Of a DNA stretch of 64,000 nt, positions 3,288-50,654 are shown piece after piece. The notes below the pieces were generated by a model that was given only the letters and a program-made list of their open reading frames with translations, did not search any database and was not told the DNA's origin. Position 1 is the stretch's first letter. The number at the start of each line of letters is the position of its first letter. This DNA is from a phage, in the sequence record PZ179882.1; one strand, given 5' to 3'. A program made the position numbers and the translations under genes.

Positions 3288-5984
3288 TCAGCCAAACAGG
3301 AAGTCTAACGAAGCTTTTTCTTCATAGTCCATGCCAGCCGATTCACACATACCCGCAAGCGGTTTAACAAACGATTTTTGGAACAAAGTTGAGTGGTCAA
3401 TCCAAGATAGCACATCAGAACGAATTTCTTTTGGAAGTTCTGTACCCGATGGCCAAGCAATGCACTTGTCACCAAATGGATTTCCTTCACGTAATGGAAG
3501 AACCATTACTTTATTTCCATCCAAAATTGGAGCTACACCCAGACCACTAACAGCTCGACGATAAGTTAGCACACCGCGAATATGGAACGGGCATTTAAAT
3601 CCTGGCCAACCTTTATCATCATATTTAGCTATATCGTTCGCAGTTTTTACTTCAGCAATAACTTTATAGTCAAGTTGACGATATTCTTTCTCGAAGTTCT
3701 TGTAATATTCTTGGACAGACTCTTCACCTTCCTGAAGAATACGACGAATACTTTCTTCGAGAGCTTCTTGCACTGCTTTTGGTGTTGAACTCTGCTGAGT
3801 TTCCATACCCATGATTTTTAGATGCGGTTCAGCAAATCGTTTATCTTCCATATCATAAACGTTCAGAGCATAACGCTTTTTCGCTTTCCAAAATCCACCA
3901 ACACCCTTTGAACCAAGTGGAGGGCAAGAAATAGCTTCACGGTCCATATGCATCAGATGCTCGCGGTTATTCATATAATCACATAACTCACGATATGCAA
4001 CATCAATCATAGGTTCCATCTTTTTCTTACCGAACTGATTCATGAATTCAACTAAATCGTTCTGCTCTTTGAATCGGTCAAGACCAACTTTTTCAATAAC
4101 TTTATCTACACAAACATATACCGAATCAGTATCACCTGCTGCAATGAAATCTTCGCCATTAGTTCCGCATACTTTATTCAGATATTCATTAATTTTACGA
4201 GCAATCCACTGAATACCAACTTGGCCGAAAATTGTGATAGCAGTAGCATTTCGCAAATCATAGTAACGGAAATGAATATTACCAAGAGCACCATAAAGAC
4301 TGTTAATAAGAATTTTACGGTTCAGCTGATTTGTATTAGCAAGTGTAGCTGCTTTTTCACATTCTTCAATCAAACTATTGAGAACAGATTCAGTATAATT
4401 CGATAGTTCATTTAAGAAATCATCACTGAACTTAACATATCGTTCAACTTCAGGTTTAGTTGAACAAGACCCTGCGCCTTTCATAATAATCTTTTTAATA
4501 GCTTCGGCATTCATTTCTTCAGCGAACATTTTCTTTTTCCAGTCTTTACGCTGGAAAAATACTTTAGCGATTTCCTTTGGAATGATACCTTCTTGATGCT
4601 TATCATACATCCATCCATTCGGAGAACAAGAATATTCATCACTCGGTTTAGGAGCTGTTCCTGCGATATATTCATGAATTGGATGAACTTTAAACTGACC
4701 ACGAATAGTCTCAGGACTAATGTTAACCTGACGAATAATGCTCGGATACAGAGACGTCAAGTCAAAACTCATAATATATCGACGAGCAATTGGTTTAGGT
4801 TCAAATACAAATGCACCTGGAAAACTCTGTTTAACGTGCGAACCTTGTTGAGGAATAACCTTATGTTCACCTTTCAATGAGTTAAAAATAATAGCATCCC
4901 AAGTTTTAATAGGACTCATTACACCGGAAAAAGGCATTTTAGCATAATAAGACATACTTAAAACTAGATCGATAAACCCGCGAATTTTATCAATTGCTTG
5001 AACTGATTCTACGTCAATGATGTTATAACTAATGTATCGTTGATGATTAGTCTCACGAAGTTTATTAATAGGACCGTCGTATGGTAATTTACCTTTTTTG
5101 GTTTCATGTTGAGCAACTGATTCCAAAGAGAATGATGGCAAATTAGTAAATGCGAATTTTTTGTACAAATCTAAATAATCAAGAATAGATACGCCATCAA
5201 TAGAATAAATTTCTTTGCTACCGTACATATTTTGAATTAGTTTAGATTTTACTCGACCGATTGGGGAGAAGCGTTTCATACTACGTTCACCGAGAACCAT
5301 TTTAACACGATTCATGATATACGGAACGTCAAATCCCTCAATATTCCAACCGGTAAAAATAGCAGGTCGTTTCTGTTCCCAGAGATTAATATATTCCATG
5401 AGCATATCACGCTCATTATCAAATGGCATATAAATTACTCGGTCAAGAATTTCTTGAGGAACTTCATCACCACCTTCACAGTCAAGCTTAGCAGCTAACT
5501 TTGCATCCCATTTTGATACTGAACCGTACATTGAATTCAAAAGGTCGAAAACATAAAAACGATCATCAATTGAATCGTAATGAGTGATAGCATCAATTTC
5601 ATATTCAGCTTTCATTGGGTCAGGAAATTTATCACCAGTAACCTCAATGTCACAGTTAGCTACACGAACAAATTTTCGGTCATAAACAATTTCTGAACCA
5701 TACGTATCACTGATATAAGCGAGTTTAAAATCGTTCATACCGAGAGCTTCGAGACCGATGTCTTCCATTCGCTTCATCCAATCTCGAGCATCTTTCATTG
5801 ATGGAAATTTTTGAGGAGCGCAGTTTTTACCGTAGATGTCTTTGTATTTTGACTCTTCCTTACAATGCCTAAACATAGTTGGAAGATATTCTACTTCACG
5901 AGTACGTTCCTTTCCGTTTTCATCAATATAACGTTCAACAATATTATTTCCGACTGTTTCGATAGAGATATAAAATTCTTTCAT
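3288..5984 (-). CDS. 43: DNA polymerase gp43 (family B)
   Basis: 898 aa, begins MKEFYISIETVGNNIVERYIDENGKERTREVEYLPTMFRH, recalled T4 gp43 sequence and length. Confidence 0.97.
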   Translation of the reverse strand: MKEFYISIETVGNNIVERYIDENGKERTREVEYLPTMFRHCKEESKYKDIYGKNCAPQKFPSMKDARDWMKRMEDIGLEALGMNDFKLAYISDTYGSEIVYDRKFVRVANCDIEVTGDKFPDPMKAEYEIDAITHYDSIDDRFYVFDLLNSMYGSVSKWDAKLAAKLDCEGGDEVPQEILDRVIYMPFDNERDMLMEYINLWEQKRPAIFTGWNIEGFDVPYIMNRVKMVLGERSMKRFSPIGRVKSKLIQNMYGSKEIYSIDGVSILDYLDLYKKFAFTNLPSFSLESVAQHETKKGKLPYDGPINKLRETNHQRYISYNIIDVESVQAIDKIRGFIDLVLSMSYYAKMPFSGVMSPIKTWDAIIFNSLKGEHKVIPQQGSHVKQSFPGAFVFEPKPIARRYIMSFDLTSLYPSIIRQVNISPETIRGQFKVHPIHEYIAGTAPKPSDEYSCSPNGWMYDKHQEGIIPKEIAKVFFQRKDWKKKMFAEEMNAEAIKKIIMKGAGSCSTKPEVERYVKFSDDFLNELSNYTESVLNSLIEECEKAATLANTNQLNRKILINSLYGALGNIHFRYYDLRNATAITIFGQVGIQWIARKINEYLNKVCGTNGEDFIAAGDTDSVYVCVDKVIEKVGLDRFKEQNDLVEFMNQFGKKKMEPMIDVAYRELCDYMNNREHLMHMDREAISCPPLGSKGVGGFWKAKKRYALNVYDMEDKRFAEPHLKIMGMETQQSSTPKAVQEALEESIRRILQEGEESVQEYYKNFEKEYRQLDYKVIAEVKTANDIAKYDDKGWPGFKCPFHIRGVLTYRRAVSGLGVAPILDGNKVMVLPLREGNPFGDKCIAWPSGTELPKEIRSDVLSWIDHSTLFQKSFVKPLAGMCESAGMDYEEKASLDFLFG

Positions 5985-28262: not shown

Positions 28263-28982
28263 TTAGGATTCTTCTAAATGTCTTTTCTGAAAAGTTGATA
28301 CCATACTACGATACGGTTCATTTGGATACCCGTGTTTTATAGCTTCCTTTGTAAATTTTCTCCATCCATATTTAGTTTCTTTCCAAAGCTCGAATAATTC
28401 ATCTTCATATTGCCATATAGTTAAATGAGAACGCTTTGCAGCTTTAATTCCATTAATATGCTTTTCTTTTACTACAGGATTACTTAGTTTCTTTTTAATA
28501 ATATTACTAACTTTTCTAACAAAAACTGGGTCCTTATATCGTTGCGAAGTTTTTATTGAAGTGTTTAATTTAGCTTCCGGTGTGGATGTGACCTCTTTCA
28601 TCTTTTTCTTCATATGCTGTATATGATTAGGATTTTTCCATAAATTTATAGAATGCTTTTTGCATTTTATCCTAGTTTCATCTGCAACCTTTCCTCCTTC
28701 ACCTCCGTATGACAGGTTAACACAGTTTTTTCCATATTTCAATTTACCTGCCATGATATATAATATTTCAGCTTGTACCATTTTATCATAATTATCAAAA
28801 ACTTCTAAAACCGTTTTTGTTAATATGTGGTCATTTGACACTTTTACACGTTCTATATAATTTCCACTACCAACATACGAATCATTGATGTTATTAGTTA
28901 TATGTCGACCATAATAGTATTTCTTAATACCTGTCTTTAAATTTAATATTTCAGTTTTATAGATAGTAAAATATTTTTTCAT
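28263..28982 (-). CDS. GIY-YIG family endonuclease (Seg-like, free-standing)
   Basis: 239 aa; N-terminal IYKT...YYYGRH...YVGSGNY GIY-YIG-like module; lysine-rich C-terminal repeats (WKNPNH, YKDPVF, LSNPVV). Confidence 0.6.
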   Translation of the reverse strand: MKKYFTIYKTEILNLKTGIKKYYYGRHITNNINDSYVGSGNYIERVKVSNDHILTKTVLEVFDNYDKMVQAEILYIMAGKLKYGKNCVNLSYGGEGGKVADETRIKCKKHSINLWKNPNHIQHMKKKMKEVTSTPEAKLNTSIKTSQRYKDPVFVRKVSNIIKKKLSNPVVKEKHINGIKAAKRSHLTIWQYEDELFELWKETKYGWRKFTKEAIKHGYPNEPYRSMVSTFQKRHLEES

Positions 28983-29965
28983 TTTAATAATACCGTTTCA
29001 GCAATTTCTTCCCAACCGTTTTTGTCGGTCATAATAAAGTCAGCAAGATAAAGAGCAGTACGCAGTGAAACATTGCGTAAACGATTAACATTAACTTTCA
29101 TCCATGATAATGCTTTATAAGTTTCTTCATCAGAAAGACCGCGCTTTTGCATCATGTCGGTTGAAAGAATAACATCTTCAACCCTGACCATAATTTCTTC
29201 ATTAGTGTGAACACCCAAATCTAAATAAACTGAGCGGGACACTAATGCTTGTAAATGTGGAGCAAGTTTAGTACCACGGTCTAATTCGCGGTCAATATCA
29301 ACGTTTGTGATAAAAACAATCGTTCCTTTAAATTCAAACTCACGCTCAATGCCTTTTTCTTCTAAGTAAGAAGATGCAGTGCTCCAGCAGACTTTACGGG
29401 TCTCTCCAGTGTCCAGAGCAGCTTTTAGAAGATTAAGAATGTCCATATCAGAGAAAACATCCACATCATCAATCAAAAGGACAGAATTCTCTTCACGATT
29501 ATTCCAAAGCTGCTCATAAAGACCAATACCAGAGATTTTACCATTAATGCTTTTATATTCAATGTATCCATTATCATTTGCTTTATTTAAAGCTTTATCT
29601 AAAGAATACGTTTTACCAATACCTGCTGCGCCAGAGATAATTAATGAACGAATATTTCCATTAATAATACCATTCGTCATCATTCCCATAACATTAAATC
29701 TTTTATTAATGCGGGTTTTCATATCTTCATATGATTCTTTAACTTCTTCAACTTTTACACCATCATATGAAATATCTGATTTGTAAACCCAAACACCGCG
29801 ACGTTTACCGTCAATTTCAACAAAAACTTTACCATCTCCTTGTGCATCTACCGGAGCATTATCTGGGAACCATTCGCCTAAGAGCTCAAAAGTTCCAGAG
29901 ATTTCTTTACCGAAGTAGATACCCTTATTGATAGTTACAGTTTTCATTTTATTCTCCAATTTCAC
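28979..29965 (-). CDS. P-loop NTPase
   Basis: 328 aa; Walker A ISGAAGIGKT and Walker B-like VLLIDDVD. Confidence 0.55.
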   Translation of the reverse strand: MKLENKMKTVTINKGIYFGKEISGTFELLGEWFPDNAPVDAQGDGKVFVEIDGKRRGVWVYKSDISYDGVKVEEVKESYEDMKTRINKRFNVMGMMTNGIINGNIRSLIISGAAGIGKTYSLDKALNKANDNGYIEYKSINGKISGIGLYEQLWNNREENSVLLIDDVDVFSDMDILNLLKAALDTGETRKVCWSTASSYLEEKGIEREFEFKGTIVFITNVDIDRELDRGTKLAPHLQALVSRSVYLDLGVHTNEEIMVRVEDVILSTDMMQKRGLSDEETYKALSWMKVNVNRLRNVSLRTALYLADFIMTDKNGWEEIAETVLLK

Positions 29966-30016: not shown

Positions 30017-30280
30017 TTATTTTAATGTTTGCCAAATTTTTACTGCTTCGCGACGAGATACTTCTACAGCTCCAAGTTCTACAGCTTTTTGGCGTCGCCG
30101 AGCGTGTAAGTCATAATGTTTAATGCGTTTATCTTGAAACCAAGAACGTTTCATTCCTATTGCTTCTGCCATTTCGTGAAGCTCTTCAATATCTCCATCA
30201 GTGAACATATGACAATTTTTAGTTGGATGACCGCGAAGTTTCCATCCATGATTCATTAAAACATCTACGTAAACTGTCAT
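30017..30280 (-). CDS. small conserved protein (DUF4031-like by recollection)
   Basis: 87 aa; motifs GHPTKNCHMFTD and HYDL. Confidence 0.35.
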   Translation of the reverse strand: MTVYVDVLMNHGWKLRGHPTKNCHMFTDGDIEELHEMAEAIGMKRSWFQDKRIKHYDLHARRRQKAVELGAVEVSRREAVKIWQTLK

Positions 30281-30495
30281 TGATTCTTCTCCAAATAAGT
30301 TTCGATAATTTTCTGGGCAAGATAAACCGCGTTATCTTCAGTTGCGTCTTCTAAGAAACTTTCAAAACACTCTGAAATTTCTTCTGTATCAATCAACTTT
30401 TTTACTTCAATTGGTGTAATTTTCATTTTGTTTTTCCGTTTAAGTGTTTGTTTTGATAGTTGTATAGTACCATAAAGCTTTATGCTTGTAAACAA
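30277..30495 (-). CDS. hypothetical protein
   Basis: 72 aa acidic protein. Confidence 0.4.
   Translation of the reverse strand: MFTSIKLYGTIQLSKQTLKRKNKMKITPIEVKKLIDTEEISECFESFLEDATEDNAVYLAQKIIETYLEKNQ
30460..30493 (-). promoter_or_regulatory. T4-type early promoter
   Basis: Minus strand GTTTACA, 17 nt, TACTAT. Confidence 0.5.
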
Positions 30496-30510
30496 TTTTG
30501 TGAAAAATTT

Positions 30511-30540
30511 TTGAAATAAAAAAGGGAGCCCGAAGGCTCC
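30511..30540 (-). terminator. intrinsic terminator (CUUCGG hairpin plus U-tract)
   Basis: Plus strand aaaaaagggagcccgaaggctccc; minus strand gives a GC stem, UUCG loop and U-run. Sits after the 337-aa gene. Confidence 0.6.
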
Positions 30541-30543
30541 CTA

Positions 30544-31557
30544 TCATTTATAATAACTTCGGTGGTTTTCAAGATAAACCCTCTCAAGGAAGTCATCCCA
30601 AAAACCCATGTCTACTTTTTGCTGCATACCGTTCTTAGAAGCTTCAGTAGATGCTGCTTCTACTTGATCGACCACATCTTCCAAAAACTCTTGAACCGTT
30701 TTAAATGGATGTTTACCCAACTTCACGTCGAGAATAAATGGAGCATCTTGGAGTGGATAAACCAAGTCACCAGTTTTGTAAATTTCCAATAGTTGGAGTC
30801 CACCACGGCAAGCATGACTCAGAGCTTTCCAGTCAATACCTTCATTGGCTTCGGCCTTACGAGCACGTTCACCGTATTCAGCATCTAATTTGTTCAGTGA
30901 CTGCTTAAGCTCAATAAGAGAAAGCGTTGTCTGATATTTACGACCCAACACTGTGTAGAACGTCTGTGGGCCTGTTTTCTCATGATTATGGAACACCCAT
31001 TCACAGAATTCGTTTTCTGGAAGACGATGCTTAATATCTTCAACTTTAGTACGACGCTGCTTAATAGAACCATCTTCTTGGTAATCAACCCATTTCTCAG
31101 GGATTTGATTAACTACTTTCAATACATCACGTAATGCAGCCAAACGAGAACCCTTAACGCCGTATTTAGAAGCTTGCTTACGGACATATCCTAAATAGGA
31201 TTTCATGTTAGTCGTATAAAAACGAGAACGGTTGTCTTGAATAAACTTCCACACATCAGGCAAATCAGATTTAACCACTAACTCAGGTGGAGTGTGAAGC
31301 ATATCTAACGCTACAGTTTCACCATCTGCTGCTAATTTAAAGAAATATTTAAGACTATACAATTCGTGGTCAATATCATCTTTAGTGTTTTTAGATGATG
31401 TGTTGTTAGTGTTTTTACTCATATGCTCTTTAACATTTCCGATAAGAATATCACGAGCAGGAGGAACAAAGATTTCTTTAAAATCTACATCAGATTCTGG
31501 GGTAGAAGTTCCATAAAGATGACTACCAAAATAGCTTTTCATTACTGTTTTCATCAT
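30544..31557 (-). CDS. predicted nucleotidyltransferase-fold protein
   Basis: 337 aa; N-terminal YFGSHLYGTSTPESDVDF fits the hG[GS]...D.D minimal nucleotidyltransferase motif. Confidence 0.45.
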   Translation of the reverse strand: MMKTVMKSYFGSHLYGTSTPESDVDFKEIFVPPARDILIGNVKEHMSKNTNNTSSKNTKDDIDHELYSLKYFFKLAADGETVALDMLHTPPELVVKSDLPDVWKFIQDNRSRFYTTNMKSYLGYVRKQASKYGVKGSRLAALRDVLKVVNQIPEKWVDYQEDGSIKQRRTKVEDIKHRLPENEFCEWVFHNHEKTGPQTFYTVLGRKYQTTLSLIELKQSLNKLDAEYGERARKAEANEGIDWKALSHACRGGLQLLEIYKTGDLVYPLQDAPFILDVKLGKHPFKTVQEFLEDVVDQVEAASTEASKNGMQQKVDMGFWDDFLERVYLENHRSYYK

Positions 31558-32015
31558 TCAGCCTTATATTCAATAACAGGACATACTTTAGCTTTACGAG
31601 CTTTTAAAAATTCAACGATAACCGATTTCTTGGGTTGAATAGGAGGTAAACCTTTATACGCCCTATCAATATTTTCTACGTGTAAAGCATAATCCTTTTT
31701 CCATTTATAATCTTTATATTTTTCACGCAGTTGTGCAGGAATAACAAATGAACCGATAATAAGTAAAACAACCAAAAGTGCAAGTATAAATGCCGATGGA
31801 AGAAGAGTCCATAAACTACCAAAAATAAGCCATTTCTGTATGATTTCTGCACAGATAATAGTTAGACCTGCGAGTATAGTACATCCGAAAAAAGAAACGA
31901 AAAATGTAGGGATAACAATAGACCAAAAGTATGCACACAGTGTCTTAGGTCGTTTCCATTCGTCGTTAAACAGTTTGAATAATTTATAGTGCCAAGAGTT
32001 TTCATTAATAATCAT
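31554..32015 (-). CDS. membrane protein
   Basis: 153 aa with several hydrophobic helices; 4-nt overlap with the upstream gene. Confidence 0.5.
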   Translation of the reverse strand: MIINENSWHYKLFKLFNDEWKRPKTLCAYFWSIVIPTFFVSFFGCTILAGLTIICAEIIQKWLIFGSLWTLLPSAFILALLVVLLIIGSFVIPAQLREKYKDYKWKKDYALHVENIDRAYKGLPPIQPKKSVIVEFLKARKAKVCPVIEYKAE

Positions 32016-32017
32016 AA

Positions 32018-32539
32018 TTATCCTTTCATTGAAGGTGTAACAGTTGTTAAATACTTAATCATAGCTTCAGCTTCTGATTTTGATAATGAAATTTCTTCAT
32101 TGTTTTGACGAATAGAAATAAAATCCGGATGACGGTCACCACCAGCTTTTAAAACACACATATAAGTATCAGTTTCATCTTCAATATCTGAAATGATTGA
32201 AGCAGTTCCACATGAATGTGGTTTTTGATAAATCAATACAGCTTTTCTTCCACCGTTTGACTGTTCATAAACTTTTAACACATCAAACAAATCGCTTCTT
32301 TTATCAATAGCTAAGATGTTGTTTTCATCTTCAATATTAAATCCTTCGGATACTTCATAAAGTGTCACCCATAAATCACCAATATCAATAACAGCGTTCA
32401 CTTTTCCATGACTTTCAAGAGCATTACAAATTTTCTTAATTTCATCATAACTCATTTTAATAATATCATCTCCTTGAATAAGGAAGATGTCATTTTTAAA
32501 TTCAACACGAATTAAACCACTTCCACTTGAAATAAACAT
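32018..32539 (-). CDS. hypothetical protein (paralog A)
   Basis: 173 aa; C-terminus SKSEAEAMIKYLTTVTPSMKG. Confidence 0.45.
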   Translation of the reverse strand: MFISSGSGLIRVEFKNDIFLIQGDDIIKMSYDEIKKICNALESHGKVNAVIDIGDLWVTLYEVSEGFNIEDENNILAIDKRSDLFDVLKVYEQSNGGRKAVLIYQKPHSCGTASIISDIEDETDTYMCVLKAGGDRHPDFISIRQNNEEISLSKSEAEAMIKYLTTVTPSMKG

Positions 32540-47056: not shown

Positions 47057-47132
47057 TGGTCGAGGCAGTAGGGATCGAACCTACGACCTAGGACTTAGAA
47101 GGTCCTTGCTCTTCCTTCTGAGCTATGCCCCG
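47057..47132 (-). tRNA. tRNA-Arg (anticodon UCU)
   Basis: Hand-folded cloverleaf: acceptor CGGGGCA/TGCCTCG, anticodon loop CTTCTAA, T-loop TTCGATC, CCA encoded. Confidence 0.8.
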
Positions 47133-47138
47133 TAATTG

Positions 47139-47211
47139 GGTGACCGATGGGAGTCGAACCCATGACTACGAGAATCACAATCTCGAGTTCTACCAACTGA
47201 ACTACGGCCAC
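47139..47211 (-). tRNA. tRNA-His candidate (anticodon GUG), CCA not encoded
   Basis: Acceptor GTGGCCG/CGGTCAC, anticodon stem CGAGA/TCTCG with loop TTGTGAT, T-loop TTCGACT, discriminator C; the 3' flank is CAA rather than CCA and position -1 is U. Confidence 0.6.
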
Positions 47212-47325
47212 ATTAATACCTACTCCAACAATCAAGATGTCTTCACACGAAATTAAGAGAAGAGTGATCAGTTCAACCCCTATAATCGCGTCAAGTAGAT
47301 ATTAATGTGACAGTTGTCACAAATT

Positions 47326-47400
47326 TGGCGGACGTGATAGGATTCGAACCTATAACCAATCGCTTAACAGGCGATCGCTCTGCCATTGAGCTACACATCC
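47326..47400 (-). tRNA. tRNA-Asn (anticodon GUU)
   Basis: Acceptor GGATGTG/CACGTCC, anticodon loop CTGTTAA, T-loop TTCGAAT, CCA encoded. Confidence 0.7.
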
Positions 47401-47404
47401 AAAT

Positions 47405-47491
47405 TGGTGGGGAGTGATGGAGTCGAACCACCCGAGTCGCAATGACAATGGATTTACAGTCCACACCGCTACCTCTACGGGATAACTCCCC
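47405..47491 (-). tRNA. tRNA-Tyr (anticodon GUA), long variable arm
   Basis: Acceptor GGGGAGT/ACTCCCC, anticodon loop CTGTAAA as in bacterial tRNA-Tyr, 87 nt, CCA encoded. Confidence 0.7.
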
Positions 47492-47503
47492 TAATTCGTA
47501 ATT

Positions 47504-47578
47504 TGGTGGCCCTGGGTGGAATTGAACCACCATCTGGCGATTATGAGTCGCTTGCTTGAACCTTCCAGCTACAGGGCC
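47504..47578 (-). tRNA. tRNA with CAU anticodon (Ile2-type or Met)
   Basis: Acceptor GGCCCTG/CAGGGCC, anticodon stem-loop GCGA-CTCATAA-TCGC resembling lysidine-type tRNA-Ile2; CCA encoded. Confidence 0.7.
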
Positions 47579-47579
47579 T

Positions 47580-47655
47580 TGGTGCTGATTGACGGAATCG
47601 AACCGCCGACCTTCTCATTACAAGTGAGTTGCTCTACCTACTGAGCTAAATCAGC
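47580..47655 (-). tRNA. tRNA-Thr (anticodon UGU)
   Basis: Acceptor GCTGATT/AATCAGC, anticodon loop CTTGTAA, T-loop TTCGATT, CCA encoded. Confidence 0.75.
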
Positions 47656-47660
47656 AAAAC

Positions 47661-47750
47661 TGGCGGAGGCGATAGGATTTGAACCTATGAGTCGCCGGAG
47701 CGACTGCCGGTTTTCAAGACCGGTGCATTAAACCACTCTGCCACGCCTCC
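47661..47750 (-). tRNA. tRNA-Ser (anticodon UGA), long variable arm
   Basis: Acceptor GGAGGCG/CGCCTCC, anticodon stem CCGGT/ACCGG with loop CTTGAAA, 90 nt. Confidence 0.8.
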
Positions 47751-47752
47751 AG

Positions 47753-47826
47753 TCTCCGTGGCAGGATTTGAACCTACGACATTCTGCTCCCAAAGCAGAC
47801 GCTCTACCAAACTGAGCTACACGAAG
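47753..47826 (-). tRNA. tRNA-Pro (anticodon UGG), CCA not encoded
   Basis: Acceptor CTTCGTG/CACGGAG, anticodon loop TTTGGGA; abuts tRNA-Ser, like the classic T4 Pro-Ser dimeric precursor. Confidence 0.75.
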
Positions 47827-47836
47827 TAAATTAAAT

Positions 47837-47910
<74 letters not shown>

Positions 47911-47915
47911 AAATT

Positions 47916-48002
47916 TGGTGCGAGAAGTGGGACTCGAACCCACAAGGAAATCATTCCGCAGCATTTTAAGTGCTGTGCCTTTACCAATTTGACCATTCTC
48001 GC
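47916..48002 (-). tRNA. tRNA-Leu (anticodon UAA), long variable arm
   Basis: Acceptor GCGAGAA/TTCTCGC, anticodon stem CAGCA/TGCTG with loop CTTAAAA, 87 nt. Confidence 0.75.

Positions 48003-49969: not shown

Positions 49970-50654
<685 letters not shown>

Follow-up and report, generated by a model that had tools for sequence, protein, structure and literature searches.

The window analysed here is a 64,000-nucleotide (nt) stretch of phage DNA (sequence record PZ179882.1) originating from a Tequatrovirus (T4-like phage), in which we investigated a 337-amino-acid (aa) open reading frame (ORF) encoding a nucleotidyltransferase (NTase; 30544-31557, minus strand) and the 153-aa ORF of a small inner-membrane protein situated immediately upstream of it (31554-32015, minus strand). 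All genes in this part of the window lie on the minus strand, and the DNA of the region is 98-99.5% identical to that of many Tequatrovirus genomes. The NTase ORF (N-terminus MMKTVMKSYFGSHLYGTSTPESDVDF) carries near its start the residues that an earlier note, made from the sequence alone, had read as a minimal NTase signature (G11-S12, Y15-G16 and S22-D23-x-D25). The TGA stop of the membrane-protein ORF is embedded in ATGATGA, where it overlaps either candidate NTase start (junction ATGATG/TGA, 31552-31557, minus strand): counted from the first ATG the two ORFs have 4 nt in common (31554-31557), as the note had stated, and counted from the second (336 aa, the start annotated in most records) the overlap is 1 nt. 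An AAGG sequence stands 4 or 7 nt upstream of the two candidate ATGs, and the membrane gene itself starts 2 nt past the stop of the gene preceding it. On the downstream side, an intrinsic terminator begins 2 nt past the NTase stop (30542-30513, minus strand; AGGGAGCC-UUCG-GGCUCCCU, then UUUUUUAUUU) and consists of an 8-bp stem (6 G-C pairs), a UUCG loop and a U-run; its predicted folding energy (-17.7 kcal/mol, z = -3.98) was equalled in none of 200 shuffled sequences.

The NTase shares 100% amino-acid identity with its counterpart in Yersinia phage vB_YepM_ZN18 and 98.8% with NrdC.11 of phage T4. Given the latter value, and since its flanking genes are those found in T4 (tk, rI, mobD.x and the AAA gene nrdC.10), the 337-aa ORF is the ortholog of T4 nrdC.11, and several records indeed label it by this name. 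Homologs are present in 1519 phage records, with the identity falling to ~30% in Vibrio and jumbo phages. The RefSeq annotation of the gene already reads ‘nucleotidyltransferase’, and the frequently encountered ‘thioredoxin’ label is an error propagated from the nrdC name.

The protein matched the Pfam family RlaP (PF10127) with 44.3 bits (gathering cut-off 23, E = 2.4e-11) and the PHROGs family phrog_388 (‘nucleotidyltransferase’) with E = 9e-137, while an exhaustive protein search recovered 3429 clusters (50% identity) at E <= 1e-3 and 826 at E <= 1e-30. The best-scoring clusters listed consisted mostly of full-length proteins of ~320 aa, and all listed database homologs bear PF10127 in their precomputed annotation. 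Because of the strength of the two profile matches and the number of recovered clusters, the NTase motif is, as judged from sequence comparison, far beyond what chance would produce. We thus regard membership of the RlaP family as close to certain. The name of this family denotes an RNA ligase-associating Pol-beta (‘RNA repair pathway DNA polymerase beta family’). The earlier note was therefore right about the enzyme class and wrong about the families that it had put forward (minimal MNT and CD-NTase-like proteins). As an MntA/MNT type VII antitoxin the protein was rejected on scores below the cut-offs (NCBIfam MntA 13.2 bits vs. 60; NTP_transf_2 13.7 bits vs. 21). A CD-NTase/cGAS-like enzyme or a known anti-defence family was likewise discarded, as no CD-NTase appeared among the fold matches and PADLOC gave no match. 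A Pfam scan of 8 neighbouring proteins found no HEPN domain, and the PADLOC search of the NTase, the membrane protein and four neighbours returned a single match, which was at the level of chance.

In an alignment of 105 homologs (34-56% identity), the residues G11, S12, Y132, H248, R251, P268 and K279 were found to be invariant, and D23, D25, N57, D61, D63 and D85 to be conserved in at least 90% of the sequences, so that the conservation of catalytic aspartates, which the earlier note had named as a check, is evident. Codons 11-25 (GSHLYGTSTPESDVD; 31483-31527, minus strand) encode the hG[GS] motif together with the metal-binding DxD carboxylates D23 and D25. Codons 61-63 (DID; 31369-31377, minus strand) probably supply the third catalytic carboxylate (D63 or D61), an assignment that draws on conservation, hhalign pairing and a strand in the structural model. 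When the protein (a ‘long’ RlaP) was compared by hhalign with canonical short RlaPs, the NTase domains aligned over 81 columns (probability 94.8%, E 5.4e-8), with GS placed on GS, D23xD25 on D43xD45, and the D61/D63 region on D82/D87 of the canonical RlaP. The C-terminal halves did not align significantly (E 0.09); this non-significant alignment placed K244-x3-H248-x2-R251...P268 on K161-x3-Y165-x2-R168...P184.

The AlphaFold2 model of the NTase, built from the 105-homolog alignment, has a predicted local distance difference test score (pLDDT) of 94.5 and a predicted template modelling score (pTM) of 0.84. It depicts an N-terminal Pol-beta alpha/beta domain (~1-115), a helical linker, a beta-rich insert (~153-210) and a C-terminal helical domain (214-336), with the DID motif at the beginning of the beta-strand 62-68. 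Fold searches with this model retrieved NTase folds only (among them an MNT protein, kanamycin/ANT(4') NTase, LinB and Tam41); with NTase similarity and conserved catalytic acidic residues both present, what the earlier note had named as refuting it did not come about, and its NTase reading holds. The closest solved structure is HalB (PDB 9dbh/9dbj), which is similar in the generic NTase core only, at 16% identity. Among predicted viral structures, many phage and giant-virus ‘nucleotidyltransferases’ were matched over the full length (TM-scores up to 0.73). The PDB was also searched by sequence, once using the protein by itself and once using the 105-sequence profile, and yielded nothing relevant in a copy that apparently does not yet include the crystal structure of P. 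fluorescens RlaP; there is no close solved structure.

As the phage protein is divergent from the characterised RlaP enzymes, we examined the genomic neighbourhoods of its own close relatives. A scan of 185,579 species genomes turned up full-length relatives (32-54% identity) at 80 loci in Desulfobacterales, Nitrospirota, Alphaproteobacteria, some archaea and others; the neighbouring ORFs were clustered, and their representatives scanned against Pfam. RtcB (PF01139), the Pnkp ligase (PF16542), Hen1 (PF12623) or Ro60/TROVE was encoded within 6 kb in 14 of the 80 loci, in gene orders such as Ro60-RtcB-x-long RlaP-short RlaP-Hen1 (L071) and Hen1-Pnkp-long RlaP (L111). Furthermore, 19 of the 80 loci contain a second RlaP, usually of the canonical type (255-270 aa) and directly downstream of the long one; these short proteins match PF10127 from end to end (E 1e-62 to 1e-79). 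The succession of a long RlaP (~310-330 aa) and a short one, often with overlapping stop and start codons, was observed in L038, L040, L049, L055, L056, L063, L071, L083-L085, L092, L101, L104 and L108. This arrangement suggests that in bacteria the two paralogs work together; the phage possesses the long form only.

The functional background comes from two Pseudomonas RlaPs (P. fluorescens and P. aeruginosa), whose genes lie between rtcB and rtcA and which were characterised in a preprint of December 2025 (PMC12776372). They were found to add 1-2 nucleoside monophosphates (NMP, or the deoxy forms dNMP) to the 3'-OH of RNA, with an optimum in the presence of Mn2+ or Co2+, and to be inactive on DNA and protein. 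On a mimic of cleaved tRNA they preferred the 3' end of the 5' half (i.e. the anticodon-loop end over the acceptor end), and their action before ligation partly restored the aminoacylation of a tRNA lacking one anticodon-loop nucleotide; in total RNA they labelled full-length tRNA- and rRNA-sized species, with little specificity for the nucleoside triphosphate (NTP) (PMC12776372). The same preprint proposes that RlaP is an antidote to ribotoxins which, such as RloC, remove a nucleotide after cutting, and places T4 NrdC.11 in cluster 5 of the PF10127 similarity network as an RlaP of unknown function (PMC12776372). The prediction that phage RlaPs restore RloC damage had already been made in an earlier comparative-genomics paper (PMC7824862).

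Taken together, these observations point to NrdC.11 as the probable gap-filling step of phage tRNA repair, a reading that we favour with some confidence and that leans on analogy with the Pseudomonas enzymes for its biochemistry. According to this scheme, NrdC.11 would hold two metal ions (probably Mn2+) through D23, D25 and D63 or D61, and would transfer 1-2 NMP, taken from NTP, onto the 3'-OH of an RNA that has been broken, the target being most likely the 5' half of a tRNA that a host anticodon nuclease has cut in the anticodon loop. It would replace the nucleotide taken out by ‘excising’ nucleases such as RloC, whereupon the phage Pnk and 5'-phosphate RNA ligases (RnlA/Rnl2) would ligate the tRNA back to its original length. 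The gene is an accessory one, non-essential in the laboratory, and comes last in an early-type unit of 4-5 genes. The partners assumed by this scheme, Pnk, RnlA and Rnl2, are all encoded by T4, and among T4-like phages the numbers of records with NTase, RnlA and Pnk are nearly equal genus by genus (Escherichia 610/637/636, Klebsiella 286/287/286, Shigella 83/83/83, Aeromonas 75/77/77, Acinetobacter 69/69/70), which is in keeping with a common pathway.

Several observations weigh against this gap-filling role. The near-equal genus counts are explained equally well by a T4-like core genome, the phage NTase gene does not adjoin pnk or rnl, and for 66 of the 80 bacterial relatives no gene of RNA repair could be recognised within 6 kb. 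The Pfam match is limited to the N-terminal NTase domain (profile positions 23-142 of 249), and the demonstrable homology to the characterised RlaPs to the N-terminal third of the protein, the diverged C-terminal two thirds being presumably those that select the substrate. Moreover, the best structural match, HalB, makes oligo-dA and does not extend RNA. Our literature search on nrdC.11 found no functional study of the gene; a T4 deletion spanning nrdC.11-mobD.3 is viable, which fits an accessory role but yields no phenotype.

The small membrane protein encoded upstream of the NTase displays one continuous hydrophobic block (residues 27-95) with K/R-rich segments on both sides. Its AlphaFold model, obtained from a 15-sequence alignment, is of low confidence (pLDDT 64.7, pTM 0.29) and was used for secondary structure only; it places helices at 26-64 and 68-120. 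From hydropathy and this model, the protein is most likely a two-transmembrane hairpin with both ends predicted to be cytoplasmic, for which the term ‘multi-pass’ applied by the earlier note is acceptable. It matched phrog_944 (E 1.5e-49) and no family in the Pfam scan, and its homologs were found in phages only (937 phage records; 23 clusters at 90% identity in a large protein database). The sequence evolves fast, with ~30% identity remaining where the NTase is 82% identical. W8, H9, C27, Y29, K143 and C145 are invariant in the 23 homologs, in which N-terminal NSWH and LCxYFW motifs and a C-terminal FxKAxKxKxCP motif can be recognised. As the invariant residues fall into segments predicted at the cytoplasmic face of the membrane, they could constitute a metal- or thiol-based site.

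The association between this gene and the NTase, which the earlier note had regarded as a coupled pair, found no support when loci of both genes were compared. Of 31 IMG/VR loci anchored on the NTase, 25 encode a membrane homolog upstream of it in the same orientation, and no more than 13 have the two genes abutting; in the remaining loci they are separated by a y05I-like gene (in L009 by a 254-aa ORF that occupies the place of T4 mobD), and the order of the membrane and y05I-like genes is sometimes reversed. Among 45 loci anchored on the membrane protein, the NTase follows 0-1.7 kb downstream in 32 and is missing within 8 kb in 13, about 8 of which combine a full-length membrane homolog with sufficient flanking sequence. 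A distance of 75-85 kb separates the two genes in two phages of ~160 kb, and a six-frame profile search of the T4 genome did not find a membrane homolog (best match E 0.009, hydrophobic noise). The facultative adjacency observed in these loci implies a conserved synteny in enterobacterial T4-like phages and not an obligate pair. An ATGA-type overlap with the NTase start is usual whatever the upstream gene may be (y05I-like gene or the 254-aa ORF of L009); the overlap was thus dismissed as a sign of dedicated partnership. We conclude that the upstream gene encodes a distinct, rapidly evolving T4-like accessory protein from a common transcript, that this protein is dispensable as a neighbour of the NTase, and that the overlap of the two genes reflects the tight gene packing of the region.

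The role of NrdC.11 in filling tRNA gaps has to be weighed against readings in which the enzyme acts on RNA of another kind, on something other than RNA, or in concert with the membrane protein. An RNA 3'-end NTase with a different target (tRNA acceptor (CCA) repair or maturation, phage tRNAs included, or the tailing of host or phage RNAs to alter their stability) appears unlikely to us, in spite of the labelling of full-length tRNA- and rRNA-sized RNA with little NTP specificity by the characterised RlaPs, and of a C-terminal domain of the NrdC.11 clade that is unlike that of these enzymes and may bring about a different specificity. A cluster of 10 tRNA genes in the window could offer substrates for CCA repair, since its tRNA-Pro has no encoded CCA; the other nine do encode it, however, and a host CCA enzyme is in any case available to the phage. 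Moreover, the characterised RlaPs favour the anticodon-loop end over the acceptor end in the cleaved-tRNA mimic, and the company that the bacterial relatives keep with ligase systems (RtcB, Pnkp/Hen1) points to internal breaks and not to 3'-end trimming. We attach still less credence to the idea that the enzyme nucleotidylates a non-RNA substrate to act against host defence, be it a toxin or another protein (AMPylation in the manner of MNT antitoxins), a second messenger that it would synthesise, destroy or modify, or DNA: the MntA score (13 bits vs. 60) and that of NTP_transf_2 are below their cut-offs, neither a HEPN protein nor another partner is encoded nearby, PADLOC and CD-NTase fold matches are lacking, the characterised RlaPs left protein and DNA unmodified, and the bacterial relatives reside in RNA-repair operons and not in toxin-antitoxin or signalling operons.

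The third possibility arises from the similarity in fold to HalB. In the Hailong host defence, as summarised in a review, the NTase HalB makes oligo-dA that keeps the HalA membrane channel shut; the phage NTase and membrane protein might by comparison form a Hailong-like module, serving as a phage exclusion or lysis-timing device or providing a decoy oligonucleotide that keeps the host Hailong channel closed. In one such variant, an oligonucleotide made by the NTase could act on the basic, Cys/His-bearing cytoplasmic face of the membrane protein. We hold this module to be highly improbable. T4 has the NTase and no membrane homolog anywhere in its genome, the genes abut in 13 of the 31 loci only with the position of the membrane gene varying relative to the y05I-like one, the NTase is missing within 8 kb of ~8 full-length membrane homologs, two phages carry the genes 75-85 kb apart, and the ATGA junction persists with unrelated upstream genes. 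The likeness to HalB is that of a generic NTase core, while sequence profiles give RlaP and PADLOC gives no match; the membrane protein itself is small (153 aa), and no channel or ligand-binding domain was recognised in it (low-confidence model). The wider supposition that the two proteins cooperate wherever both are present, either as a Hailong-like module or as a membrane-anchored RNA-repair station whose membrane partner T4 would have lost at the mobD insertion, seems to us equally far-fetched.

The earlier note had placed the pair of genes between an early promoter and a strong terminator, of which the terminator was confirmed and the promoter applies in a loose sense only. No good promoter was found directly upstream of the pair: the sole closer site (32086-32058), a match at 9 of 12 positions that falls within the coding sequence of the preceding gene, was rejected, and the nearest strong site of the sigma-70/T4-early type (GTTTACA-17-TATAGT with TG; 33267-33239, minus strand; consensus match only) is located 1.2 kb upstream. 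For this reason we interpret the pair as the distal part of a unit of 4-5 genes. Between the 33267-33239 site, which is the likely start of transcription as judged from its consensus, and the pair are a 34-codon ORF and two tandem genes similar to y05I (T4 mobD.1-like; 32546-33079/33103 and 32018-32539, minus strand), so that the likely order is promoter, small ORF, y05I-like gene, y05I-like gene, membrane protein, NTase and terminator. The y05I-like paralogs match PF24449 and PF24448 (E 1e-34 to 4e-39) and phrog_1502; T4 has one such gene, and the y05I/mobD.1 family is labelled ‘putative transcription factor’. Inside the first paralog (33004-32977) we noted TTGACA-16-TATATT with TG, the best promoter-like match of the region (11 of 12 positions).

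The terminator at 30542-30513 closes the transcription unit; its UUCG version is kept among Tequatrovirus loci, T4 included, and five more distant loci possess analogous hairpins. Directly past it, a further early-type promoter-like site (GTTTACA-17-TACTAT with TG; 30492-30464, minus strand) marks, on the strength of its consensus match, the putative start of the following unit; the hexamer pair of this site is seen again at 30012-29984. This unit (30017-30495, minus strand) comprises a small ORF (49-72 aa, phrog_6888) and a DUF4031 gene (87 aa, PF13223, E 1e-21), both located between the nrdC.11 and nrdC.10 orthologs. In the IMG/VR copy of Yersinia phage ZN18 (L003, ~5014-5040), which encodes an identical NTase, a deletion of ~50 nt relative to window positions 30470-30530 deprives the terminator hairpin of its 3' arm and the next promoter of its -35 element, removes the T-run as well, and joins the NTase gene directly with the following small ORF. 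Further downstream, a 239-aa seg-like homing endonuclease (28263-28982, minus strand; phrog_314, E 1.8e-30; no match in the Pfam scan) shares 4 nt with the end of the AAA-type nrdC.10-like gene (28979-29965). In T4 this position is free of an endonuclease, the local one (mobD) being upstream of nrdC.11.

Elsewhere in the window, the tRNA cluster (47057-48002, minus strand) encodes Arg, His, Asn, Tyr, Met(CAU), Thr, Ser, Pro, Gly and Leu, and differs from that of T4 (8 tRNAs: Arg, Met, Thr, Ser, Pro, Gly, Leu and Gln, where the endonuclease segB separates Arg from Met) by the additional His, Asn and Tyr and by the absence of Gln and segB. Furthermore, the T4 record (L162:13567-14025) contains at the 57B position a 152-aa protein annotated as ‘RNA ligase’ (phrog_755), and the window an ORF of 152 aa at 49970-50428 (minus strand) as a possible counterpart; instead of a ligase, the annotated protein may be a member of the 2H phosphoesterases.

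The gene, its family assignment, the T4 membership and the RloC-restoration hypothesis are already in the literature, and the value of the present analysis is that of confirmation and context, not of discovery. What it adds is that genes of the ‘long’ subfamily reside within RNA-repair operons of bacteria, where they often immediately precede a canonical RlaP, and that the membrane neighbour is dispensable. If the RlaP reading is true, nrdC.11, a well-conserved gene of the best-studied phage family, would provide the third step that has been missing from classic T4 tRNA repair (heal, fill, seal) and a phage answer to RloC-type anticodon nucleases, which excise a nucleotide to defeat simple religation. 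Predictions of such a step in the arms race with RloC go back a decade, and T4 allows a direct test of it.

In comparison with known systems, the window protein is closest to T4 NrdC.11 (336 aa), with which it agrees in length, in its position between mobD.x and nrdC.10, and in the UUCG terminator past the stop codon. The two loci differ in their immediate neighbours: upstream, T4 has the mobD homing endonuclease (17-nt overlap) where the window has the 153-aa membrane gene, and downstream, a 115-nt spacer in place of the small ORF and the DUF4031 gene. With canonical RlaPs the protein has in common a Pol-beta NTase domain at the N-terminus (GS, DxD and third Asp), followed, as judged from the model, by a C-terminal helical domain, and relatives of both associate with RtcB and Pnkp/Hen1; it is, however, ~70 residues longer and contains the beta-rich insert at ~153-210. 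From the Pseudomonas RlaPs in particular it is set apart by its separate similarity cluster (5 vs. 1a; PMC12776372) and by a gene that does not adjoin that of a ligase. HalB is more distant, as it comprises 217 residues, produces Tyr-primed oligo-dA and depends on HalA as its obligatory partner in host defence; in phages the pairing is facultative, the NTase profile is that of RlaP, and the membrane protein forms a probable hairpin of 153 aa. Lastly, the T4 Pnk and Rnl1 pathway, which counters the anticodon nuclease PrrC, seals 5'-phosphate and 3'-OH ends and would as such accept the 3'-OH product of an RlaP; it heals and seals only, leaving a lost nucleotide unreplaced, and NrdC.11 would add precisely that step.

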